Shown piece after piece: positions 3,502 to 18,443 of a stretch of DNA of 51,728 nt. The position numbers and the translations under genes are program-made. The stretch lies in contig SMYD01000008.1 of assembly GCA_004356015.1 (NCBI GenBank), positions 1 through 51,728 of the forward strand. The letters run 5' to 3'. The DNA comes from Acidobacteriota bacterium (GTDB taxonomy: Bacteria; Acidobacteriota; Polarisedimenticolia; SMYD01). The notes under the pieces are model-generated. The model worked only from the letters and a program-made list of their open reading frames with translations. It was not told the DNA's origin and searched no databases. Each line of letters begins with the position of its first letter. Position 1 is the stretch's first letter.

Positions 3502-3644
3502 TCTAGCCCGGTGTGCGGGGTCTGTCCAAGAGCGGGGCCGGGGACAGGCCGGGGTCTATACTGTCCTGGCCGGGAGTGCCCATGGGCCAATGGGCCCCGC
3601 TGCTGGCCCCGGCCTCTGATTTGCATTACGTTCATTTGACTGCC

Positions 3645-6600
3645 ATGCGTCTCCCTGCCAGGTTCCTGCTGCTGGCCCTGCTTCCCATGGGGCCGGCCAT
3701 CTTCGCTGCGGCTCCTGCGGGGCCGCCGGTGAACGGCATGGGAGTTGTCCTTCCTGCCGACTGGCTGACCACCCCGCTGCAGGCGGACGAAGTGCCGCCC
3801 CTGCCCTGGTCCGGCCGCCCGGCCGGCGTGCCTCTTTACGTCCGTGTGACCATCACCAGCGCGGCTCTGGATCAGCCGGACGTCAGTGCCCGTCGGCTGG
3901 GGACTCTCCGGGATCAGGATCTGGTACCGGTGCTGCTGCTGGACTCACCCGGCGCCGGCCGGCCCATGAGCACAGCCCTGGGCTTTGATCTCGACGGGTG
4001 GTTGACCCGGGTGGATCGCCTCCTCCAGGTCATGGACCATGAACCGGTCCTGGTGCAGGTCATGGAGCGTCCCCTGCAGCACATGACGGCACCCCTCTAT
4101 GCCTTTGTGCTGAAGCGCATGGCGGTGATGGTGCGCGCCGTGGCCCCTGGCTCACACATTGCCAGCGGCACTCTTGCGGATGTCAGCGAGGCGCGGGAAC
4201 TGGCCGTGTGGGGGGTGGAACCGTACCTGGATGCTGTGGTCATGGACAGGGCGGCTGCAGGTGCCATGGATCTGGCAGGGGTTCGCATGGCCCTGCCGGC
4301 GACGGAGATATGGCTGTCCGGTGCCGGTGCCGGCGGAGGCTCCTATCTGCGGGAGGCGGGCCTGGCGTTCAGCCGCGCGGTTTCCCTGGTCTTTGCCGCG
4401 CCTGACAGCGGACTGTCACCGGAGATGCTGGCTGCCTGGCAGCGGTTGCTGGGGCCGGAAACCATCGTGGTCCCGCCGGCATTCCGTCGGGTGGAGGTTC
4501 GTGCCGGGGAGCAGGTCCTGCCGCCTGAAGATTTTCTCGAACTGGAAGAGCCCGATGGCAGGCGCTATCTGGTGGCTTTCGCGGCCCCCGCCGGCCTGCC
4601 TCTGGAGATGACCATCCATGGACCACGGGTCAGCGTGGCGTGGATTCTGGATCCCGTCACCGGTACGGAAACCATGGGCGCCGCCGCCGACTGGCTCGTG
4701 GCCGGCGGTGACCCGAGCAGCCACGCGGTGAGCCAGGTGACCCTCCATGTGCCGGGGTTGCCTTTGGTCGTGCGCCTGGGGCGGGTGGGTGGTGCGGCGC
4801 CGCGGCTGGCCGAGTTGGAGAAAGTCGTGGCGGGCCGGAGCCTGACGGTGGAGGAGATCCTGGCTCGCCACCGGGAGGTCCAGGCAGGCCAGGATCGGCG
4901 CCTGCATACCACTGAAGCCGACGTGCGTATCGATTTCCATTTCAGTGTCGCCAATCTCAGCCAGAGGTTCGATGTCGCCACTCTCAACCGCTATTTCCAT
5001 GACAGCACCCGCACGGTGTACGAGGAGCGCGCCCTCTATCTCAACGGCGCCCTGTGGCGCGGCAAGCGCCCTCCGGACCTGCCGTTTGTCCTTCCCGAGC
5101 GTGTGACCGAGGTGCCACTGGACCTGAATCTCGACCTCCGTTACGTCTACGAGCTGGAGAAGACCGCAGATCTGGACGGCCGGCAGGTCTACGTGGTCTC
5201 CTTCGCCCCGGTAGAAGGCAGTGAGGCCCCCTATCGCGGGCGCGTCTGGATCGACACCCAATCGTTTGTCAAGCGCCGTCAGGAGGTGGTGGAACTGCAC
5301 CCCAAGCTCCCGGTCATCAGCAATCGCCTCCTGCAGGAGTTCACGCCGGTGACCCAGGGCGGGCGAACCTGGTGGCTGGTGACGCGCCTGACCGGGCAGA
5401 TGATCTTCACGGCTCTCGGGCGCAACGTGGTCCTGGAACGAGAGCTGATCTACAGCGACTACCAGATCAACCTGCCTGCCTTCGAGGATCGCCTGGATGA
5501 GTCGTACGCCTCCGACCGGCCCCTGTTGGAAGAAACGGAGGACGGATTCCAGCGCCTGGGGGTGGTCGCCGATGGCCGGGGCGGTTTCACGCGGCAGGTC
5601 TCGGATCAGGGTCGCACCGGTGTCAGTCGCCTCGTGGTGGGGGTCTGGTCCATCGGGGACGATCTCGGCCTGAAGGTGCCGTTTGCGGGTGTGAACTATT
5701 TCAACTTCGACTGGCGGGGAACGGGCAACCAGGTGGATGTGATCTGGGCCGGCCCTTTTCTCAATGTGTTCTGGTCGGATCCCAGCTTTGGCGGGGGCAA
5801 GGCCATCCTGGCACTGCAAGGGCGCATCAACCCGCTTTATTCAGGCAACGAGCGGCTGGATGCAGGCGATGACATCGACGGCGAGATCAAGGCGGAGCGC
5901 CTCGAAGAGAGTTCCCAGCGCTTCCAGATCATTCTGGGCCGTCCGCTGGGCGTCCATCACAAGTTCGAGTTTCAGCTGGATCTGGATCACCTCCGCTTCC
6001 GCAGCGAGGATGAGACGGCGGCGGACTTCGTCGTGCCCTCGGACACCTGGCAGGAACTCCTCACCGGGCGCTGGATCTATGCCCGTGCCGGCTGGCGGCT
6101 GGAGGGCTCGCTCCAGGGCGGTTCCCGCAACGACTGGACCTTCTGGGGCGACCCCGACGGGTCGGATTTCAGTGATGGCGATGAGCAGTTCGCGCGCTCG
6201 GCGATGGAATTCAGCAAGGCGTTCTATTCCGCCGGCCGCAACAAGTTCGGCTTCGGCCTGGCCATGTATCACGGCAACGGTCTGGACCGGTTCTCCAAGT
6301 TCGAACTGGGGCGCTCCGGTGTGGCGCGTGTGCCGGGTTACAGCCGCGACGGCATCCGTTTCCGCACCGGCGGAGTGCTGGGACTCAGCGGGGCTTTCGC
6401 CCTGGGCAGCAAGGCTCGGATGGACCTGAGCCTCACCCACGCCCGTTTCCGCGATGAGGAGGACCTGGGCCCCCATGTGGAGCATGCCACCGGGGCTAGC
6501 GTGGCACTCAACTTCTCCGGGCCGTTCAACGCGTTCATGCGGGCGCGCGTGGGCTTCGCCCTGAGCAGTTCCGTCGACGATGCCGACGGCGGCGGCTCGC

Positions 6601-6686
6601 TGCGGGTGACCTACTTCCGCACCTTCCGGCGCTGGTTCTGGCAACGCGCCTCTGAGAAGAAACACAAAAACGGCCCCGGGTCCTGA
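3645..6686 (+). CDS. Large exported/outer-membrane hypothetical protein (N-terminal alpha/beta domain, central LolA/RseB-like domain, C-terminal beta-barrel-like region)
   Basis: ATG 3645 starts a signal peptide (MRLPARFLLLALLP...). The central YVVSFAP...YRGRVWIDTQSF resembles LolA/RseB-fold proteins. The C-terminal third is alternating amphipathic beta-strands. Confidence 0.7.
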   Translation: MRLPARFLLLALLPMGPAIFAAAPAGPPVNGMGVVLPADWLTTPLQADEVPPLPWSGRPAGVPLYVRVTITSAALDQPDVSARRLGTLRDQDLVPVLLLDSPGAGRPMSTALGFDLDGWLTRVDRLLQVMDHEPVLVQVMERPLQHMTAPLYAFVLKRMAVMVRAVAPGSHIASGTLADVSEARELAVWGVEPYLDAVVMDRAAAGAMDLAGVRMALPATEIWLSGAGAGGGSYLREAGLAFSRAVSLVFAAPDSGLSPEMLAAWQRLLGPETIVVPPAFRRVEVRAGEQVLPPEDFLELEEPDGRRYLVAFAAPAGLPLEMTIHGPRVSVAWILDPVTGTETMGAAADWLVAGGDPSSHAVSQVTLHVPGLPLVVRLGRVGGAAPRLAELEKVVAGRSLTVEEILARHREVQAGQDRRLHTTEADVRIDFHFSVANLSQRFDVATLNRYFHDSTRTVYEERALYLNGALWRGKRPPDLPFVLPERVTEVPLDLNLDLRYVYELEKTADLDGRQVYVVSFAPVEGSEAPYRGRVWIDTQSFVKRRQEVVELHPKLPVISNRLLQEFTPVTQGGRTWWLVTRLTGQMIFTALGRNVVLERELIYSDYQINLPAFEDRLDESYASDRPLLEETEDGFQRLGVVADGRGGFTRQVSDQGRTGVSRLVVGVWSIGDDLGLKVPFAGVNYFNFDWRGTGNQVDVIWAGPFLNVFWSDPSFGGGKAILALQGRINPLYSGNERLDAGDDIDGEIKAERLEESSQRFQIILGRPLGVHHKFEFQLDLDHLRFRSEDETAADFVVPSDTWQELLTGRWIYARAGWRLEGSLQGGSRNDWTFWGDPDGSDFSDGDEQFARSAMEFSKAFYSAGRNKFGFGLAMYHGNGLDRFSKFELGRSGVARVPGYSRDGIRFRTGGVLGLSGAFALGSKARMDLSLTHARFRDEEDLGPHVEHATGASVALNFSGPFNAFMRARVGFALSSSVDDADGGGSLRVTYFRTFRRWFWQRASEKKHKNGPGS

Positions 6687-6729: not shown

Positions 6730-8720
<1,991 letters not shown>

Positions 8721-8773: not shown

Positions 8774-8800
8774 TTAGCACTCACCTTTAACGAGTGCTAG
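8774..8800. promoter_or_regulatory. CIRCE element (HrcA operator)
   Basis: TTAGCACTC-acctttaac-GAGTGCTAG is one mismatch from TTAGCACTC-N9-GAGTGCTAA, upstream of groES. Confidence 0.95.
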
Positions 8801-8827
8801 CATAACATTGGGTTCTGAACCTGTCAA
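8799..8827 (-). promoter_or_regulatory. Sigma70-type promoter of groESL
   Basis: Minus strand TTGACA (8827-8822), 17-nt spacer, TGn-extended TATGCT (8804-8799), overlapping the edge of CIRCE. Confidence 0.85.
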
Positions 8828-8940: not shown

Positions 8941-8968
8941 TTGTCGCCGCCGGCGCGAGACGTATATT
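8941..8968 (+). promoter_or_regulatory. Candidate sigma70-type promoter of the AAA+ operon
   Basis: TTGTCG-16 nt-TATATT, followed by a GAGGAG RBS (8977-8982) and an in-frame TTG at 8990. Confidence 0.4.
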
Positions 8969-8989
8969 CCTGTGCAGAGGAGCATTCCA

Positions 8990-10891
8990 TTGGCCGAGAA
9001 TGAAGTCAGCCGAGTCGAGTCGGTTTCACGGGAGGATCTGGAATCCCGGCTGCGGGAGATTGCCCGGCGCCATCATCCCGAGGAGATCCTGGATCGCCTG
9101 GAACTGACCCACCTGGTGCAGGTTCTGACCAATGATGCTCTCCTGGTGGGTGACCTCTACACCCGCACCGCTCTGGGGCAGATCCTGGATCGGGAGCTTC
9201 CATCGCTGCCGGTGGCGTTGCGTGCCCTGGCCCAACGGGCCGATCGCAAGGGTCCGGAGGACACCAGCCTCCTGATGGAAGTTCGCCGTCTGCCCGAAGA
9301 CCTCAAGGCCGTGGGCGATAAATGCCTGCTGGACGTGGGACTGGTCGGCCAGCGCGAGTTTCGGGGCATTTCCCTCATCGACCTTGGACGGCGCTCCTAC
9401 GAAGTCGCTTCCCGCATCATGGAACGCCTGGCCGCCGACCCCACCCTCAGCCGGTTCTTCAAGGAAAACCAGCTTGCGGCGCTGCCCATCGAGGAGGAAG
9501 TCCTGTTCCTGCAGCAGTGTTCGCGGCGTTTTGCCCTTTATGCCGATCTTCTCCACTGGCTGCGTGCCGATAACCCGGAAAGCCGTGAGGAGAGGGCTCT
9601 GGCTGGAACTCAGCCGGCGACGCTCTCGCCCGGTCCCGGGGCGGGGGCCATTGCGGCCATCACCGCTGTCCCCATGATCGAAGAAGCCGTGGTCGAGGGG
9701 GAGGATGGCAGTCCTGATCCCTCTCCTTCCGCGAGGCCCCAGCCGGCCGGTGATCGGGTGCAGCTTCCCCGGGAGGAATTGCTGGCGGCCTACGAGCGCA
9801 TCCTGCTCTTCTCGGCCCTGGATATACCGGCCCTGGGTGAGCGGCTGGGCGAGACCGTGGTGGGCCAGAGCGGTGCCATCCAGGCGCTCTGCGATGAGTT
9901 CACCCTCTATGCCACCGGGACCCACAACTTGAACAGGCCCCCGTCCTATCTCTTCGTGGGGCCCACCGGGGTGGGCAAGAACTACCTGGTGGAGACGCTC
10001 CTGGAAATCCTGGAGCAGGGCTGGGGCCTGGAGATTCCCCTGCTCATCCTGGAGGGACCCAATTACACCTACCCGGCAGACATCAACGAGTTGCGCGGGG
10101 CCACCCGGGGTTTCATCCGCAGCGACGAGGACGGGGTGCTGACCGAGTTCCACAAGAAGTCTGCGACCTCGCCCCTGTCCGTCATCCTCATCGACGAGGT
10201 GGAGAAAGCCCACCCTCAGCTCAGGCGCTTCTTCCTCTCCATCATGGATCGAGGCACAGTGACCGATAACCGGGGCAAGGTGCTCAGCTTTGCCAATTCC
10301 ATGCTGGTGTTCACCTCCAATATCGGTTATTCGGATCTGAGGCGTCAGGCAGCACCCATCGGCTATGGAGATCAGGCATCCAAGGACCGACGGGACGCCC
10401 AGGACGTGCGCCGGTCCCTGCGCCGTGCCCTGTCCCCTGAGTTCATCAACCGGTTGCGCCCCATCCATTTCGATCACCTGGGGCCTGAATCTCTCGAACG
10501 GATATTCGACCTCGAACTGGAACGGATTGCCCGCCGCTTCCGGGATATCCACGACCTGGAGGTCGAGGTGACTCCTGCGGCGCGGACCGAACTCCTGCGC
10601 CGGGGCACCAGCCATGACCATGGCGCCAGGCATCTGCGGGCGCGGATGGAAACGCTCATCAACGTGGAGATCAGCCGCCGGATCAAATCCGATGAGCGGC
10701 GCCGGGGCTCTGGGCATAATCGCACCCTGAAGTACCTGCGCGCGCTGAAGACAGGGGAGCGGCCGTTTGATCTGGATGAAGTCCGCGCCCGGGTCATGAA
10801 GGTCGCGCGGGCACGGGTCTCGTACCATCGCTTCCGGGTGGACCTGAAGGACGACAACTTCGTGTACGAGGGCGTCAAGGAGCCGTCGTGA
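8990..10891 (+). CDS. Single-AAA-domain ClpA/B/C-D2-like ATPase with uncharacterised N-terminal helical domain
   Basis: Walker A GPTGVGKN, pore-loop position GATRGFI, Walker B ILIDEVEKAHP, sensor-1 TSN, PEFINRL, sensor-2 GARHLR. The start is placed at TTG 8990 from the RBS; the ORF track uses GTG 8972. Confidence 0.9.
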   Translation: MAENEVSRVESVSREDLESRLREIARRHHPEEILDRLELTHLVQVLTNDALLVGDLYTRTALGQILDRELPSLPVALRALAQRADRKGPEDTSLLMEVRRLPEDLKAVGDKCLLDVGLVGQREFRGISLIDLGRRSYEVASRIMERLAADPTLSRFFKENQLAALPIEEEVLFLQQCSRRFALYADLLHWLRADNPESREERALAGTQPATLSPGPGAGAIAAITAVPMIEEAVVEGEDGSPDPSPSARPQPAGDRVQLPREELLAAYERILLFSALDIPALGERLGETVVGQSGAIQALCDEFTLYATGTHNLNRPPSYLFVGPTGVGKNYLVETLLEILEQGWGLEIPLLILEGPNYTYPADINELRGATRGFIRSDEDGVLTEFHKKSATSPLSVILIDEVEKAHPQLRRFFLSIMDRGTVTDNRGKVLSFANSMLVFTSNIGYSDLRRQAAPIGYGDQASKDRRDAQDVRRSLRRALSPEFINRLRPIHFDHLGPESLERIFDLELERIARRFRDIHDLEVEVTPAARTELLRRGTSHDHGARHLRARMETLINVEISRRIKSDERRRGSGHNRTLKYLRALKTGERPFDLDEVRARVMKVARARVSYHRFRVDLKDDNFVYEGVKEPS

Positions 10892-11586
10892 GCCTGCTTG
10901 CCACGACCCAGGGTCTGCTTGAACGAACCTACGCCACTGTGTCGGGAGTAGGTGACCTGGGGCGGTTTGTCATCGGGGATATGGGTTATCGCCGTCTCCT
11001 GCGCGACCACGATCCCATCCAGGTGGTGAATACCGGCGTCCAGGCGCATGTCTCCCATGCCGGCACGGGCGACACTCCACGTGTCCTGGTCCGGCAGTGG
11101 CACCAGGGCGCGGCCCTGTCCATTTATTTCCCCGATGCCCTCATTGCCCGCCTCGAATCACGTCCGCCCACGGCCGTTCTTGATGATGGCAACGTGGACG
11201 ACTTCGCCGATTTCGTGGAGGAGATTGACCACTTCCTGGTGCTCTACGACGGCATCTGCCGGGGTCGTGAAATGCACCTGCTGGCCCTGGAAACCCGTGC
11301 CAACATCAGCAAGGCCCTGGTGGTCTCCCATTTCCTGGGGAGGTTGTCCGGGCGCCGCCGGCTGGGTCCCGATCAGCGTCAGTGGGTGCGCTACCACCTC
11401 TTCAGCAAGAAGCGGTTCAACGACCCCGACCCCGTGGTGCGTCGCCGCTACAGAGATGCCCGGCGCTTCGCCCTGCGCCTTCTGGAGCGTCTGGAGGGGC
11501 TGTCCGCACGCCAGCGCATCCGGGAGTTGCGGCGCTGGAACAGTCTGCCCGCGCAGGAAAAGATGCGGGAACTGGCCGCGAACTGA
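10888..11586 (+). CDS. Hypothetical protein coupled to the AAA+ ATPase (EEIDH motif)
   Basis: GTGA start/stop overlap with the ATPase; 232 aa with typical codon usage. Confidence 0.8.
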   Translation: MSLLATTQGLLERTYATVSGVGDLGRFVIGDMGYRRLLRDHDPIQVVNTGVQAHVSHAGTGDTPRVLVRQWHQGAALSIYFPDALIARLESRPPTAVLDDGNVDDFADFVEEIDHFLVLYDGICRGREMHLLALETRANISKALVVSHFLGRLSGRRRLGPDQRQWVRYHLFSKKRFNDPDPVVRRRYRDARRFALRLLERLEGLSARQRIRELRRWNSLPAQEKMRELAAN

Positions 11587-11616: not shown

Positions 11617-13206
11617 TCAGCGGGGGAGAGCTGCAGCGGCGCCACCGGCCGGGTGATCCGCCAGCATGGCCAGCTCGCGAGCCTGGGGAAACAGGGTCAG
11701 GGCTTTTTGCACCTGGGCGTCATACTCGTTGCGGACGCGGTTGCTCCAGACCAGCCCGTAACGGGCCGAGAGGACTTCCGAGCGCACGAACATACTGATG
11801 TTGCGCCGGTCCACCTGAAGCTCCGACTCCTCGAAGGGAATCTCTTCATCCAGGAGGAGCTGGCGGAATTCCTCGAGCACCTGGTCGGTCATCTGGAAAT
11901 CTTCGGGGACCTCGGGGTGTCGTGAAAGGTAGGCCACCGCGAAGCGGAAGAAGGCCGAGGTACGGTACATGCGGGTGATGAAGGTGGACGGCTCCTCCAG
12001 CTTGACTTCGGTATCCGGGGCGATACCCCCACCGCCATAGACGGTGCGGCCACCATCCGTGAAGCGGCGTGTGCTCTGGTCGAATGAAGGTTCGTAATTC
12101 TCGTCGGTCCGGTAGGCGACGTAATCTTCCAGGTCGTCATAATCGCGCTGGATCAGACGCCCTGAAGGGGTGTAGTACTTGGCCGTGGTGAGGGCCAGGG
12201 CGTTGCTGTGGGAGAGGGGGTACACGGATTGGACCAGTCCCTTGCCCCAGGTGGTCTCACCGACGATGAGGCCCCTGTCGTGATCCTGGATGGCGCCGGC
12301 GACGATCTCGGAGGCAGAGGCCGAACCGCGGTTCACCAGCACCACCAAGGGCAGGTCCGGGTAGGAGGCATCTTCGTTGGCGTAATAGTCCTTGTTGGAC
12401 CCCTTGATGCGTCCCCTTGTATAGACCAGTTTCTTGCCACGCTCCAGGAAGGTGCCCGAGACGCTCACGGCCTGATCCAGAAGGCCGCCGGGATTGCCTC
12501 GCAGATCCAGGATCAGCCGCTTCATTCCCTGGCGATCCAGTTTTTCCAGAGCGGCGTGCAGTTCCTTGCTGGTGGTCTGGGTGAAGTTGCGAATCTTGAT
12601 ATAGCCGGTATCCGGTTCAATCATGTAAGGACTGACCACACTGTCGGTGGGGATGGTGTCCCGGGTCACCTCGAACTCGAGTTGCTCTGTAAAACCGGGC
12701 CGGGTCACGGTGATATTGACCGAGGTGCCCTTGGGGCCACGCAGGAGATCGACGGCTTCCGATGAAGTCATGCCATCGGTCGTGGTGCCGTTGATGCGTG
12801 CGATGATGTCGCCGGCGCGAATGCCCAGCCGCGCGGCCGGAGTCCCGTCGATGGGACTGATCACGGTCAGAGGCCGGTCACGCCCCAGTTTTTGAATGAC
12901 GATTCCGAGACCGGTGAATGAGCCGCGCTGTTCTTCCCGCATGGAGCGGAACGCCTTGAGGTTGAGATAATGGGAGTGGGGGTCAAGGGTGCGCAGCATG
13001 CCGTTGATAGCCCCCTCCACCAGTTGATCCGGTTTGGTCTCTTCATAGTAATTGTCCTGGACCACCTGCAGGATGGTGGCGAATGAGCGGACAAACGTCT
13101 CATTTTCCCATGTATCGGCTTGAACCCGGCTGGACAGAGCCACACCGGCCAGCGAGCCGGCAACCAGAAGAACGGCTGCCACGGAAGGAAGAGATTTGAG
13201 CCGCAT
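11617..13206 (-). CDS. S41 carboxyl-terminal processing protease (CtpA/Prc-like)
   Basis: Signal/TM segment, LDPHS, PDZ domain, DLRGNPGGLL, SASASEIVAGA, GKGLVQ; ATG 13206 with GGAGG RBS. Confidence 0.95.
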   Translation of the reverse strand: MRLKSLPSVAAVLLVAGSLAGVALSSRVQADTWENETFVRSFATILQVVQDNYYEETKPDQLVEGAINGMLRTLDPHSHYLNLKAFRSMREEQRGSFTGLGIVIQKLGRDRPLTVISPIDGTPAARLGIRAGDIIARINGTTTDGMTSSEAVDLLRGPKGTSVNITVTRPGFTEQLEFEVTRDTIPTDSVVSPYMIEPDTGYIKIRNFTQTTSKELHAALEKLDRQGMKRLILDLRGNPGGLLDQAVSVSGTFLERGKKLVYTRGRIKGSNKDYYANEDASYPDLPLVVLVNRGSASASEIVAGAIQDHDRGLIVGETTWGKGLVQSVYPLSHSNALALTTAKYYTPSGRLIQRDYDDLEDYVAYRTDENYEPSFDQSTRRFTDGGRTVYGGGGIAPDTEVKLEEPSTFITRMYRTSAFFRFAVAYLSRHPEVPEDFQMTDQVLEEFRQLLLDEEIPFEESELQVDRRNISMFVRSEVLSARYGLVWSNRVRNEYDAQVQKALTLFPQARELAMLADHPAGGAAAALPR

Positions 13207-13397
13207 GCACCCTCCATACCGATGGACAAGAGATGAAACAATCGATTTCGTCTCAAATATACCGTGGGTCCTCACGCGAGTAAAGGTCGAATCCTCTACC
13301 ATTACAGTAATTTACATGGGCAGGGCGTTCCTTGACCTCGCTGCCGGGGCTGGCCTACCCTAACCTCAGGGTTCTCGGCATCCCCATGGAGGAAAGC

Positions 13398-13751
13398 TTG
13401 TTCGGCCCCATCGGCGGCCCGGAAATGGTCGTCATCCTCATTGTCGCCCTTCTGATCTTCGGTCCGCGCCGGTTGCCGGATCTTGCCCGCAGCCTGGGCA
13501 AGGGACTCTCCGAGTTGCGGCGGACTTCCATGGATCTGCGTCGCACTCTGGAGCGGGAGATCCACCAGGAGGAGAGGGACAGGAAGCCGCCCGTCCTGCC
13601 CTCGGCAGAGTCGGTGGCCTCCCGGCCCGACGGCAGCGTGCCCCGTGAGGACCGGGCCGCCCCCCCGGAGCAGCCCGATCCGCCCGCCTCCGCTCCCGGC
13701 GACCAGGAGGGAGCGGCAGAGGACGAAGACTCCCCGCGCGAAGACCACTAG
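13398..13751 (+). CDS. Twin-arginine translocase TatA/TatB subunit
   Basis: FGPIGGPEMVVILIVALLIFGPRRLPDLARSLGKG; TTG start after GGAGG; upstream of tatC. Confidence 0.92.
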   Translation: MFGPIGGPEMVVILIVALLIFGPRRLPDLARSLGKGLSELRRTSMDLRRTLEREIHQEERDRKPPVLPSAESVASRPDGSVPREDRAAPPEQPDPPASAPGDQEGAAEDEDSPREDH

Positions 13752-13783
13752 CCCCCAGCCCTTCAGGAGAGACTTCCCGGCTC

Positions 13784-14581
13784 ATGGCCGCCTCCCGTCC
13801 CGATCCCAACAAAATGAACTTCCTGGAGCATCTTGATGAGCTCCGGAGACGCCTGTTCATCATGGTGGTGTCTGTGGCCGTTGGCTTTGGCGGCGGCTGG
13901 CTGGTGCATAACGAGGTTCTGCGCATCCTCATGGCCCCGGTGCAGGCCAATCTTCCGGAAGGTCTGAAACCTGTCTTCACCACCCTGACCGAACCGTTCA
14001 TGCTGGCCATGAAGGTGTCGTTCTTCGTGGGCCTCATCGCGGTCCTGCCGGTCCTGGTCCTGCAAATCTGGTTGTTCATCTCGCCGGGATTGTTCCCCAA
14101 CGAGCGGCGCTACGCCGTGCCGTTCATTTTTTTCGGGTCGGGGTTTTTCTTCCTCGGCTGCTGGTTCGGATACGCGGTGGTCTTTCCCTATGCCGCTCGC
14201 TTCCTCATCGGCTTCGCCGGCGACCAGTTCGCTCCCATGCTGACCATCTCACGCATCTTCGGGTTCGAGATGCGCCTGATTCTCTCCATGGGCGCGGTCT
14301 TCCAGATGCCGGTCTTCATCTTCCTTCTGGCACGCCTCGGTCTCGTGTCCGCCGGCTTCCTCTGGCGCAACATCAAGTACGCCGTTCTCATCATCTGCAT
14401 CCTGGCGGCGATTCTCACCCCGACACCCGATGCCGTCACCATGGCGCTTGTGGCCGGTCCCATGCTGGGGCTGTACGTGCTGGGGATTCTGGTGGCACTG
14501 GTCTTTGGACGCCGCTCCAAGCCGACCGAGGATGCGGAGAACTCCGATGATGATGAGGGGGAGGAGGATGGTTCCTCATGA
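13784..14581 (+). CDS. tatC: Twin-arginine translocase TatC
   Basis: FLEHLDELRRRL, QIWLFISPGL, FQMP, AAILTPTPD. Confidence 0.97.
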   Translation: MAASRPDPNKMNFLEHLDELRRRLFIMVVSVAVGFGGGWLVHNEVLRILMAPVQANLPEGLKPVFTTLTEPFMLAMKVSFFVGLIAVLPVLVLQIWLFISPGLFPNERRYAVPFIFFGSGFFFLGCWFGYAVVFPYAARFLIGFAGDQFAPMLTISRIFGFEMRLILSMGAVFQMPVFIFLLARLGLVSAGFLWRNIKYAVLIICILAAILTPTPDAVTMALVAGPMLGLYVLGILVALVFGRRSKPTEDAENSDDDEGEEDGSS

Positions 14582-15379: not shown

Positions 15380-17386
15380 ATGTCGCCCGGTGACGCCCTG
15401 CGAGTTCTGCATCTGGATGACGGCCGCGGCTGGCGAGGTGGCCAGCAGCAGGTGTCCTTCCTGCTCCGCGAGCAGGCCCGCGCCGGCCACCTGCCAGTGC
15501 TGGTCTGCCCCCCCGGGCAACCGCTGGGGCGCTGGGCCCGGGAGTCCGGGATCGAGGTCCATGAGGGTCCGCTGGCCGGTGGGTTGAGTCCGGGTGCCAT
15601 CATCGCGGTGCGGCGAGCTGTGGCCAGGATACGGCCGCACATCGTGCACGCCCACACTTCCGGTGCCCATTCCCTGGCCCTGCTGGCAGTTCGGGGGAGG
15701 GGGCGGCCTCTGCGCGTGGTGACCCGCCGCCTGGCCCGTGTACCCGGAAGGTCGCCTGTGGCACGCTGGAAATACGGTGAGGCCGTGGATCTCTTCATCG
15801 CCGTCTCACGGGCCGTGCGCCGCGACCTGGTGGCCGGAGGGGTGCGACCTCAGAGGATCGTGGTGGCGTTCTCGGCCATCGATCCTGCACGGTTCACGGA
15901 TCCGCCATCCCGCCAGATCGCGCTGGCCGCCCTGGGGCTGCCGCCTGAAGCGCGTGTGATCGGCACTCTGGGCAGCCTGGTCCGACAGAAGAGCCAATGC
16001 GATCTGGTGTCGGCCTTCGGCCTGCTGGCGCCGGGGCACCCGCGCCTGCACCTGGTGATCCTGGGTGAGGGCCCCCTGCGCGCGGATCTGGAAGCGCAGG
16101 TGATCCGGCTGGGTCTCAGGGGCCGGGTCCACCTGCCCGGATTCCGGGACGATGCTGGTGATCTGCTGCCCCACTGGGATCTGGCCGCTCTGCCCTCGCT
16201 GTACGAGGGGATGCCCAACGCCGTGCTGGATGCCCTGGCTGCCGGCGTGCCGGTGGTGGCCACGCCGGCCGGTGGCGCGGCCGAGGTCCTCATGCCCCGG
16301 GCCGGCCGCATGGTCCCGTTCCACGCGCCGGCGCGCCTTGCAGGCGCCATGGACTGGATTCTGGAACATCCCGGGGCTGGTCGGGAGATGGCCCGGGAGG
16401 GGAGGCGGAGGGTGCTGGCGAGGCATGTTCCTGAAGTCATGGCCGCCTCGGTGGAAGAGGGATACCGGCGGGCGCTGGCCCGGCGTCTGCGGGGTGGCGG
16501 CCGCCATGGTGCAAGCGTGCAGGTCGGCCGGGTGCGCGTATGGGGGCGGGACAGCGCCGTGCGCGCCGATCTGGTGCGGCGGGCCGCCGGCCATGAGGGC
16601 CTACCGGCGGCGGGCCTGTCTCCCGGCGGCCACGGAAGCGGCGGCCGGGCGCCGGTCTTGCGCACCTCTCTGGGCGGGTGCCGTGTGGTGCTCAAGATGC
16701 ACCGCCGAGGCGGGCTGCCTGGAACGTTGAGCCGCTTTCTGCCCGGCGACGCCGCCGGTCTCTTTGCCGGCCCCGGCAAGGCGCGTCGCGCGGAGGAGGT
16801 TGCCACAGGATTCCGGGCCCGGGGCGGTGTGGCGCCCGAACCGGTGGGCTGGCTGGCGGTTCGCCGCGGCCTCATGTGCCGGGTCTATGCCGCCGCTGTG
16901 GAGCTGGTCGACGCCGGCACCCTGGACCAGGTGCTGGCGGAAAGTTCCGTGCGCCGACGAGCGCAGTTGCTGTGCGCCCTGGGGAAGGCGCTGGCGCGTT
17001 GGCACCACGCCGGCCTGGTGCATCGTGATCTCAACGCCGGGAATCTGCTGCTGGTCGCTCCGGGGGGACGCACGCCCCGGGCCGAGGACTTTGCCGTGAT
17101 CGATCTGGAGAGCGCGCGCCTTCGCCGGCGCCTGTCCCGGCGGGCGAGGGCGGCGGCCCTGGCCCGCCTGGAGCGCTCCCTCCTCAAGGTGATGGGGAAG
17201 GCGGCCCCTGGATGGCGGGAAGGGCTGCGGGTGCTGGGCGCCTACGGGATGGAGTGGGCTCTGCTGGAGGCAAGGCCGCCCCATGAAGCCGCATCTCTTG
17301 TGCGAGGACTGCTGAAGCCGCTGGCCCGCCATCGCCGCCTGCACAGGTGTCACGGCCTTCTGACCTCTAATCCGAAGAGGGGTTGA
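15380..17386 (+). CDS. GT4 glycosyltransferase fused to a Kdo/LPS kinase-like domain
   Basis: N-terminal WRGGQQQ, HAH, PSLYEGMPNAVLDA; C-terminal LKMHRRGG, HRDLNAGNLL, IDLE. Confidence 0.85.
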   Translation: MSPGDALRVLHLDDGRGWRGGQQQVSFLLREQARAGHLPVLVCPPGQPLGRWARESGIEVHEGPLAGGLSPGAIIAVRRAVARIRPHIVHAHTSGAHSLALLAVRGRGRPLRVVTRRLARVPGRSPVARWKYGEAVDLFIAVSRAVRRDLVAGGVRPQRIVVAFSAIDPARFTDPPSRQIALAALGLPPEARVIGTLGSLVRQKSQCDLVSAFGLLAPGHPRLHLVILGEGPLRADLEAQVIRLGLRGRVHLPGFRDDAGDLLPHWDLAALPSLYEGMPNAVLDALAAGVPVVATPAGGAAEVLMPRAGRMVPFHAPARLAGAMDWILEHPGAGREMAREGRRRVLARHVPEVMAASVEEGYRRALARRLRGGGRHGASVQVGRVRVWGRDSAVRADLVRRAAGHEGLPAAGLSPGGHGSGGRAPVLRTSLGGCRVVLKMHRRGGLPGTLSRFLPGDAAGLFAGPGKARRAEEVATGFRARGGVAPEPVGWLAVRRGLMCRVYAAAVELVDAGTLDQVLAESSVRRRAQLLCALGKALARWHHAGLVHRDLNAGNLLLVAPGGRTPRAEDFAVIDLESARLRRRLSRRARAAALARLERSLLKVMGKAAPGWREGLRVLGAYGMEWALLEARPPHEAASLVRGLLKPLARHRRLHRCHGLLTSNPKRG

Positions 17387-18443
17387 CCCCGGCGAGAATC
17401 TCGCGCGCGGCCGCGATCACCGCCTCCGGCTTGATGGCAGCCATGAGGGATGGATCCCGTCCTCCGGCCAGACGCTGGGCTGTGGTGACTGCGACCTGGC
17501 GGTGACCCGGTCCCCAGGGGGCGTTGACCACAGGGTCGGTGGCGCCATAGAGGGCCACCACCGGCGTGCCCACCAGCCAGGCCAGGTGCATGGGGCCCGA
17601 ATCGTTGCCGATGAAGAGGTCGGCGGTACGCAACAGCTCGGCCAGGAGGAGCAGGGAGGTCGCCGGGAGCAGGTGCACTCCACCTCCGGCGTGCCCTGCC
17701 ACCTCCCGGGCCAGTCCCTCCTCGCCGGGCCCCCAGGCGATCTGGACCGTGGCGCCACCTGCGGCCAGGCTGGCGGCCGCGGCGGCGAACATGCGGGGTG
17801 GCCATCGCTTGTAGCCCTGCCGGTTGCTGGCACCTGGAGATATCAGGATGCGAACGCGGCCAGGCTTGGCGGCCCAGAGAGATTCGGCCAGCGCGGCTGC
17901 GCCGGCCTGCCGGGGCAGCTCCGCCGCCGCCAGGGAGGGGTCGGCTGCCAGCGGCGCCAGCAGCGACAGAGCTTTTTCGACCCGCGACTGGCGGGCCGGG
18001 ACCGGTGTCACATGATGGGTGGCGGCCCCGGGGATGTATTCGCGGGCGACACCGCGGGCGAAGCCGATGCGCAGGGGGGCGCCCGAAAGGCGCATGAGGA
18101 GTGCCGACTTGTACGTTCCCTGGGCATCAAGAACCACCTGGGGTCGCCAGCGCCGGATCGTCGCCAGGGTGGTGCGCAGCCGGCTGCCCGCCCTGAGGAG
18201 GTGCCCCGATTTCAGGCTGCGGGTCAGATCCTGGCGCGGAAATTCCAGCACTTCGTCCACCAGGGGCTGGACCTCCACCACCGGTCTTTGACCCGGTTCG
18301 CAGAGCCAGCCGAGGCGGGCAGCTGGAAAACGCGCCCGCAGGGGCGGGAGCAGCGGCAGGGTCCTGATGACGTCACCCAGAGCCGAAAGGCGGATGATGA
18401 GGATGCTGGCGGGGGAGAAGCCGGAATGCGCGGGATCGGCCAC
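17367..18443 (-). CDS. GT9 LPS heptosyltransferase family protein
   Basis: ILIIRLSALGDVI, DAQG..KS, KRWP, GNDSGPMHLA. Confidence 0.93.
   Translation of the reverse strand: MADPAHSGFSPASILIIRLSALGDVIRTLPLLPPLRARFPAARLGWLCEPGQRPVVEVQPLVDEVLEFPRQDLTRSLKSGHLLRAGSRLRTTLATIRRWRPQVVLDAQGTYKSALLMRLSGAPLRIGFARGVAREYIPGAATHHVTPVPARQSRVEKALSLLAPLAADPSLAAAELPRQAGAAALAESLWAAKPGRVRILISPGASNRQGYKRWPPRMFAAAAASLAAGGATVQIAWGPGEEGLAREVAGHAGGGVHLLPATSLLLLAELLRTADLFIGNDSGPMHLAWLVGTPVVALYGATDPVVNAPWGPGHRQVAVTTAQRLAGGRDPSLMAAIKPEAVIAAAREILAGVNPSSD

Follow-up and report, generated by a model that had tools for sequence, protein, structure and literature searches.

AAA+ proteolysis in bacteria is conventionally listed as ClpXP, ClpAP/CP, HslUV, Lon and FtsH. 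Within that list, ClpX has an adaptor-binding N-terminal domain and carries a C4 zinc-binding domain, HslU has an I-domain inserted in its AAA module and pairs with HslV, and ClpA, ClpC and ClpX dock on ClpP through a dedicated loop. A two-gene operon on the + strand, adjoining groES and groEL (groESL), was analysed in a 51,728-nucleotide (nt) stretch of DNA from a marine-sediment acidobacterium of the class Polarisedimenticolia (assembly GCA_004356015.1, contig SMYD01000008.1, positions 1 to 51,728 of the forward strand; this whole stretch is called the window below). The first gene (8990..10891, +) encodes an ATPase of 633 residues, and the second (10888..11586, +) encodes a protein of 232 residues, called the partner here, which has a predicted zincin-like fold and belongs to no sequence family. 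Judged by its sequence, the ATPase is a hexamer-type Clp/Hsp100 enzyme with a single ring of the D2 type (that of the second ring of ClpA, ClpB and ClpC) and the full set of hydrolysis and threading motifs, and the operon looks like one for a cytosolic, ATP-driven unfolding machine that has not been described before and may be a new branch of bacterial protein quality control.

Compared with ClpC and ClpA, the ATPase shares the AAA_2 and D2-small domains, the pore loop, the arginine finger, sensor 2, and a hydrophobic-Gly-aromatic loop tip in the same alignment column, but lacks the first (D1) ring, the Clp_N repeats and the M-domain, and has a Walker A motif ending in GKN, an I-G-Y loop, and an N-terminal domain (N-domain) and C-terminal tail of its own. 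Its nearest functional analogue is ClpX, which also combines a single AAA+ ring with an N-terminal recognition domain and an I-G-F-type ClpP loop; the ATPase differs from it in lacking the C4 zinc-binding domain, and the genome has its own clpX beside clpP. The nearest description in the literature is that of ClpI from Actinomycetota, bioinformatically recognised Clp unfoldases with a variable N-domain, with or without a ClpP-binding motif, which are double-ringed with a ClpB/ClpC-like architecture (Jiang and Schmitz 2023, PMC10149685), whereas the ATPase has one ring. A literature search of limited coverage produced no description of a single-ring, D2-only bacterial Clp protein with a ClpP-type loop. 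A Clp protein that unites a lone D2 ring with its own recognition domain, a loop of the ClpP type and the GKN ending of Torsin would extend the AAA+ proteolysis list by an architecture so far missing from it, and would be a bacterial counterpart of the eukaryotic D2-only enzymes Skd3 and Torsin.

In the list of open reading frames (ORFs) of the window, the longest open frame of the ATPase spans 8972-10891 (+). The start is most likely the TTG at 8990, since a GAGGAG (8977-8982) lies 7 nt upstream, a promoter-like site is found at 8941-8968, and the 633-residue form is the one in the protein database. The partner starts with GTG, and the junction reads ccgtcGTGAgcc (longer stretch: TCGTGAGC), the two genes sharing GTGA, with the partner GTG (10888-10890) lying over the ATPase TGA (10889-10891).

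Pfam assigned AAA_2 to residues 319-490 of the ATPase (9944..10459, +; 3.8e-32, 112 bits, cut-off 27) and ClpB_D2-small to the region behind it (10478..10699, +; 8.2e-12, 45.4 bits, cut-off 21.9); the same scan contained no Clp_N domain, second AAA module or ClpX zinc finger, leaving the first ~285 residues without a match. The NCBIfam equivalog models of ClpA, ClpB and ClpV matched in their D2 part only, at 151-158 bits against cut-offs of 885-1232 (ClpA, 158 bits against 993), and the ClpX model reached 26.4 bits against a cut-off of 359, over residues 484-563 only. The HslU model was not among the NCBIfam matches, and the AAA module runs continuous against ClpC. The closest match in the PDB was the D2 ring of ClpC (3j3t, E=6e-40, residues 287-565), and the other solved relatives were the D2 rings of Hsp104, ClpC1, ClpB and ClpA, together with human Skd3, whose chains covered residues 282-498. 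The original prediction had described a gene pair joined by a GTGA overlap, head-to-head with groESL and converging on a CtpA protease gene, and this layout was reproduced in every part by ORF coordinates, junction sequence and Pfam; it had also described one intact AAA+ module of the ClpA/B/C second-ring type, without D1 ring, Clp-N or zinc-binding domain and different in sequence from ClpX and HslU, which is what the Pfam and equivalog models returned.

Motif conservation was counted in an alignment of 120 full-length ATPase homologues (46-100% identity). The Walker A motif GPTGVGKN (9959..9982, +), with Asn in place of Thr/Ser, is identical at all eight residues in 120/120. In the pore loop G374-F375-I376 (10109..10117, +), which aligns with the G-Y-V pore loop of ClpC, the Phe is kept in 119/120 and the Ile in 116/120. 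D402 and E403 of the Walker B motif ILIDE (10184..10198, +), E484, F485, N487 and R488 of PEFINR, in which R488 (10451..10453, +) is the arginine finger, and the sensor-2 GAR (G545-A-R547, 10622-10630, +) were each found in 120/120. Behind the small domain follows a conserved C-terminal tail of ~60 residues (10700..10888, +), absent from ClpB and ClpC, in which R584, R591, Y612, F624 and Y626 were invariant among 30 sequences; in an alignment of the D2 regions, neither the ClpB nor the ClpC-like protein of the same genome has a counterpart to it.

The loop I457-G458-Y459 (10358..10366, +), the tip of a P-I-G-Y helix-loop-helix, occupies the place that the ClpP-docking loop takes in ClpC and ClpA, and reads [IV]-G-[YF] in 120/120 homologues (Tyr in 111, Phe in 9). 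In HMMER alignments, I-G-Y shares its column with VGF of B. subtilis ClpC, and in the D2-region alignment the genome's own ClpC-like protein has P-M-G-F in that column and its ClpB a 10-residue gap. The genome (2.73 Mb, 92% complete) contains a single clpP gene with clpX and lon behind it, two genes for Clp proteins of the double-ring type, and one HslU-like gene, and the ATPase is thus an extra unfoldase and no replacement.

The distribution of both genes was determined by a scan with one genome per species, which produced 67 loci, almost every one of them from a genome carrying the label Acidobacteriota or Polarisedimenticolia; the tallies include one unpublished genome (G157), on which no claim rests. 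In 57/64 informative loci, counting one frameshifted locus (L016), the partner gene is immediately preceded by that of the ATPase; among the intact loci, with L016 set aside, the spacing between ATPase stop and partner start ranges from -10 to +37 nt. L016 comes from a long-read metagenome-assembled genome in which the ATPase and groEL genes are both split over several frames, most likely by assembly frameshifts rather than as pseudogenes. The recurrence of the two-gene arrangement in dozens of species-level genomes shows it to be non-random. The divergent groES lies less than 700 nt from the ATPase start in 48/49 informative loci, and groEL adjoins the module in related loci too (tblastn); such a constant location by the chaperonin genes points to a possible part in protein quality control.

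Across the phylum, the partner was found in 29/301 genomes, namely in 25/27 of the class and 4/274 of other classes, and the N-domain of the ATPase was found in 78/119 genomes of the class (50/63 of those of high quality), with 70/80 of its matches in open frames of at least 600 residues. Among the 27 genomes of the class searched for both genes, 23 had both, 2 the partner only, 2 neither, and none the ATPase only. Conversely, in seven loci (L047, L048, L051, L055, L059, L061 and L063) the partner stands directly behind groES, with a gap of 200-340 nt and no ATPase. Since the ATPase never occurs without the partner and the partner sometimes occurs without the ATPase, the dependence runs from the ATPase to the partner only, making the ATPase the add-on. 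The ATPase-less loci all belong to a single group within the class, genus g6 and its kin, for which loss of the ATPase or a state before its insertion are both possible.

The N-domain (residues 1-195; 8990..9574, +) is conserved and is followed by a variable linker rich in Ala, Pro and Gly (residues ~196-257; 9575..9760, +), which is unconserved across the 120 homologues. No sequence or profile match to the N-domain, which falls in no known family, was found in the PDB, Pfam, NCBIfam or PADLOC. An AlphaFold2 model built on 33 sequences was all-helical (predicted local distance difference test score, pLDDT, 85.5); Foldseek returned nothing from the PDB at E<=0.001, and the VIA-align matches, of generic helical, TPR or MIT-like three-helix type, did not exceed Z 6.7 and do not suffice for naming the fold. 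Searching 1.84 billion representatives exhaustively with phmmer produced 45 clusters only, the full-length ones being fusions of 599-673 residues.

When metagenomes were scanned with four distant homologues of the partner, 80 loci were obtained, all 80 with an ORF of the partner family, and in 64/80 an ORF of ~185-250 residues from a second family, termed U1, lies directly upstream of the partner homologue on the same strand. U1 had no match in Pfam or the PDB. In 10/38 U1 loci with enough upstream sequence, a divergent groES-groEL pair stands just before U1. In profile-profile comparison of the N-domain with U1 by hhalign, significance rose step by step as the U1 alignment was enlarged, from P=0.012 (6 sequences) through 0.0015 (52 sequences) to 4.5e-4 (24 diverse sequences), and the invariant columns of both families coincide (E..[HY]LV..L, VGD..L...G, G..AY, F). 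On the strength of this comparison and of the identical gene position before the partner, U1 and the N-domain are probably homologous, and if they are, the ATPase serves as a Rosetta-stone fusion for the U1-partner pair.

The U1-partner pair recurs in distant lineages, where its surroundings differ. Outside the groESL-linked clade, its neighbours are varied, with an S9 peptidase at 3 loci, a T2SSE ATPase at 2, and others, and no recurrent AAA+ gene was seen near these pairs. In three metagenome loci (L127, L143 and L156), the pair is preceded by a gene for a prolyl-oligopeptidase (S9) with PD40 repeats. U1 was also found without the partner in four other acidobacterial genomes (L159, L160, L161 and L162, in G183, G243, G223 and G014), where it immediately precedes a zinc-finger gene of the DksA/TraR type and lon, all in the same orientation, with a Cys-rich ORF on the other side. 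The fusion offers a testable lead for two unannotated families, U1 and the partner, which are paired in several phyla, sometimes beside groESL or Lon.

The original prediction had stated that the N-domain and the partner resemble a pair of unannotated stand-alone proteins found adjacent in other bacteria, and this is upheld by the 64/80 loci together with the hhalign P of 4.5e-4. The same prediction held that it would fail if homologues of the two genes did not co-occur, if the fusion were unique to this assembly, or if the protein belonged to an already characterised family; instead, co-occurrence was found in 57/64 loci and in 23/27 genomes of the class with no ATPase-only case, the fusion recurs across the class (78/119 genomes; 70/80 matches in frames of at least 600 residues), and searches of both proteins in Pfam, NCBIfam, PADLOC and the PDB placed neither in a characterised family.

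For the partner itself, sequence and profile searches gave no match in Pfam, NCBIfam, PADLOC or the PDB; its relatives number 92 close ones (158-253 residues) and 550 by profile. The AlphaFold2 model (pLDDT 88.5) was compared by VIA-align, which is independent of Foldseek, and the best 50 rows (Z 10.5-5.8) were nearly all zincin metallopeptidases or their close structural kin, led by tricorn factor F3 (Z 10.5, root-mean-square deviation 4.0, 172 residues aligned), a Deinococcus M1 peptidase (Z 9.7) and oligoendopeptidase F (Z 9.6). Other matches were LTA4 hydrolase, ACE, thermolysin, M30, M13, M32 and DUF885, with enzymes of M1, M2, M3 and M4 among them. On the long helix 103-125 of the model, the sequence E111-E112-I-D-H115 (11218..11232, +) occupies the HExxH position, and E135 (11290..11292, +), on the next helix and 20 residues past H115, the position of the third gluzincin ligand, a Glu expected ~18-25 residues behind the motif. 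Among 85 partner-family sequences, E111 is kept in 84/85, and H115, E135, Y188 and R215 each in 85/85, with position 112 being Glu in 57 and Gly in 28. The predicted fold, with a metal-site helix followed by a Glu-bearing helix, resembles the gluzincins (M1, M3, thermolysin, Peptidase_MA_2), and the His-to-Glu spacing of 20 is that of Peptidase_MA_2 proteins from genomes of the same class; the partner differs from these enzymes in having EExxH for HExxH, in showing no sequence or profile similarity to them, and in the exchange of the catalytic Glu for Gly in part of its family. The description that suits it best is that of a predicted zincin-like protein whose Glu/His/Glu site is invariant; the catalytic-base Glu is present in this clade, in which peptidase activity is plausible, not assured.

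The reading ranked first, which stands somewhat short of an even chance, is that of a ClpP-coupled unfoldase. The N-domain would bind the partner, as U1 presumably does, and the resulting unit would select, process or trim client proteins, which the D2 ring would unfold and hand through its I-G-Y loops to the single ClpP of the genome. In function the ATPase would then act like ClpX-ClpP with an adaptor, while by descent its ring would be a D2 ring of the ClpC/ClpA kind. A complex prediction with the full ATPase and the partner returned a score of 0.00 ('no answer') and weighs neither way.

Several observations count against this reading. The proposed contacts, N-domain with partner and ATPase with ClpP, are all inferred, and ClpP docking is deduced from the position of a loop that reads I-G-Y where the canonical form is [LIV]-G-[FL]. 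The Walker A ending GKN is non-canonical, GxxxxGK[ST] being found in 0/120 homologues. In the last hhalign run, the N-domain and U1 aligned collinearly over 139 columns at a probability of only 33%, which is weak by sequence, and a hidden Markov model of the N-domain had 0 matches at E<=10 among the ORFs of the 80 metagenome loci. The zincin assignment of the partner is a tentative one from structure comparison, in which Foldseek found nothing in the PDB at E<=0.001 and a Z of ~10 falls in the range that is ambiguous in VIA-align for helical proteins; aligned by hhalign with 29 Peptidase_MA_2 segments from genomes of the class, the partner gave non-significant P values of 0.26-0.44. Its motif is EExxH and not HExxH, the first metal ligand being Glu instead of His, and since the catalytic-base position is Gly in 28/85 sequences, peptidase activity may not be the common function of the family. 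The partner also works without the ATPase in some genomes, as in the seven loci described above, for which 5/5 genomes checked (5 of the 7 loci) had no N-domain match. Finally, the CIRCE-like repeat (controlling inverted repeat of chaperone expression) between groES and the ATPase gene belongs to the groES promoter and lies ~140 nt from the promoter-like site of the ATPase operon.

If the partner is itself the peptidase, the operon would encode a split AAA+ metalloprotease, equivalent to FtsH in two pieces and without the membrane anchor, in which the D2 ring docks on an oligomeric partner via its I-G-Y loops or its C-terminal tail and feeds unfolded chains to it, ClpP being uninvolved. FtsH, too, serves quality control by joining an AAA+ ring to a zincin peptidase, within a single membrane-anchored chain whose AAA module is of the classic clade and whose M41 domain bears HExxH; here there are two soluble proteins, and the module is a Clp D2. 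The predicted zincin-like fold, the invariant E111, H115 and E135 with E112 kept in this clade, the translational coupling of the two genes, and the absence of any genome with the ATPase alone among 27, a strict dependence on the partner, are consistent with such an enzyme, for which the conserved C-terminal tail, without counterpart in ClpB or ClpC, could be the docking element. It is nevertheless an unlikely arrangement, since in many genomes the partner stands with a non-ATPase U1 or alone and so needs no unfoldase, the catalytic Glu is absent from a third of its family, there is no indication that it forms a ring, and the docking loop is of the ClpP-binding type in a genome that has ClpP. 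An evolutionary extension of the same idea, which must be held at a similarly low level of belief, is that U1 and the zincin-like protein form an old, widespread and uncharacterised stress-proteolysis module, placed repeatedly beside groESL or Lon, which captured a Clp D2 ring in the Polarisedimenticolia; from this would have come an AAA+ metalloprotease of two soluble components, an analogue of FtsH acting in trans, perhaps ClpP-free. Were this captured-ring reading true, free-standing U1 proteins would be adaptors for AAA+ unfoldases in other phyla.

The third reading, about as improbable as the split metalloprotease, dispenses with proteolysis: the ATPase would be a ClpP-independent remodeller like ClpB, Skd3 or Torsin, spending ATP on the unfolding, release or activation of the partner or of the partner's clients, as in the recycling of a metal-dependent enzyme or the dissolving of aggregates. 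Human Skd3 (CLPB), a disaggregase with one D2-type module behind an unrelated N-terminal domain, is a D2-only precedent for it, and the ATPase has the same arrangement without the ankyrin repeats (Pfam); the D2 module also scores about equally with the ClpB, ClpA and ClpV models, and the operon adjoins groESL. Torsin, not a protease partner, has the same non-canonical Walker A, GxxxxGKN, as described for TorsinA, and lacks both the arginine finger and the aromatic pore loop (PMC5628414); the ATPase retains both, in R488 and F375, which argues against a Torsin-like mode of action. A further objection to a ClpP-free remodeller is the ClpP-docking-type loop, present in 120/120 homologues and absent from the genome's own ClpB, and the ATPase further differs from Skd3 and Torsin in being bacterial and cytosolic and in carrying this loop. 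The Lys-Asn ending of the Walker A motif is otherwise known from the eukaryotic Torsins, and kinship or convergence are both possible.

It is highly improbable that the ATPase and the partner are functionally unrelated and that their adjacency, along with that of groESL and CtpA, is merely inherited gene order, a synteny of the class. In its favour, the 67 genome loci come from (nearly) one Acidobacteriota lineage, kin are non-independent, and the linkage to CtpA is loose, the convergent gene lying within 300 nt in 39/63 informative loci. Shared descent does not readily account for reading frames that overlap or nearly abut across the class, or for an ATPase that is never found without the partner, and the U1-partner pair in distant lineages with other surroundings would scarcely be expected unless the families of the N-domain and of the partner were linked in function. 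An anti-phage defence module of AAA+ ATPase and effector, suggested by PADLOC matches of the ATPase to PDC-M37B (5.5e-21) and Dodola DolB (1.4e-12), was rejected as very improbable, since these matches cover the generic AAA core only (residues ~271-455), the partner is unmatched, and the operon has a fixed core-genome place by groESL in nearly the whole class instead of a variable island.

Upstream of the operon, groES (8433..8720, -; 95-residue ORF) stands head-to-head with the ATPase gene and is followed by groEL (6730..8382, -; 550-residue ORF) in the divergent operon. A CIRCE-like inverted repeat, TTAGCACTC-N9-GAGTGCTAG (8774..8802), lies proximal to groES and overlaps a sigma-70-like promoter site for groES, TTGACA-17-TATGCT (8799..8827, -; 10/12 matches in a consensus scan only). 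Scanning 57 related intergenic regions with the CIRCE consensus showed a single copy 50-165 nt from groES in 53/57. The promoter-like site of the ATPase operon, TTGTCG-16-TATATT (8941..8968, +; 9/12 matches, likewise in a consensus scan only), is separate, and as far as motif positions indicate, heat-shock co-regulation of the operon with groESL is not supported by the promoter layout. In two sequencing runs labelled 'metatranscriptomic WGA', contigs extended over both genes at a depth like that of the DNA runs of the same samples, making them uninformative on expression.

Downstream, a convergent gene (11617..13302, -) encodes a PDZ protease of the S41/CtpA type (Peptidase_S41, PDZ and CtpB_N-like in Pfam) with an N-terminal hydrophobic segment, predicted to be a signal or transmembrane segment; it is probably an exported enzyme and a syntenic neighbour outside the cytosolic unfoldase system. 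Directly past it, 13332-14581 holds tatA/B-like and tatC genes. On the other side of the locus, upstream of groEL, an ORF of 1057 residues (3513-6686), without any Pfam match, has a C-terminal part that looks beta-rich. The G+C content rises to as much as 0.73 at 16001-18000, compared with 0.61-0.68 elsewhere in the window.

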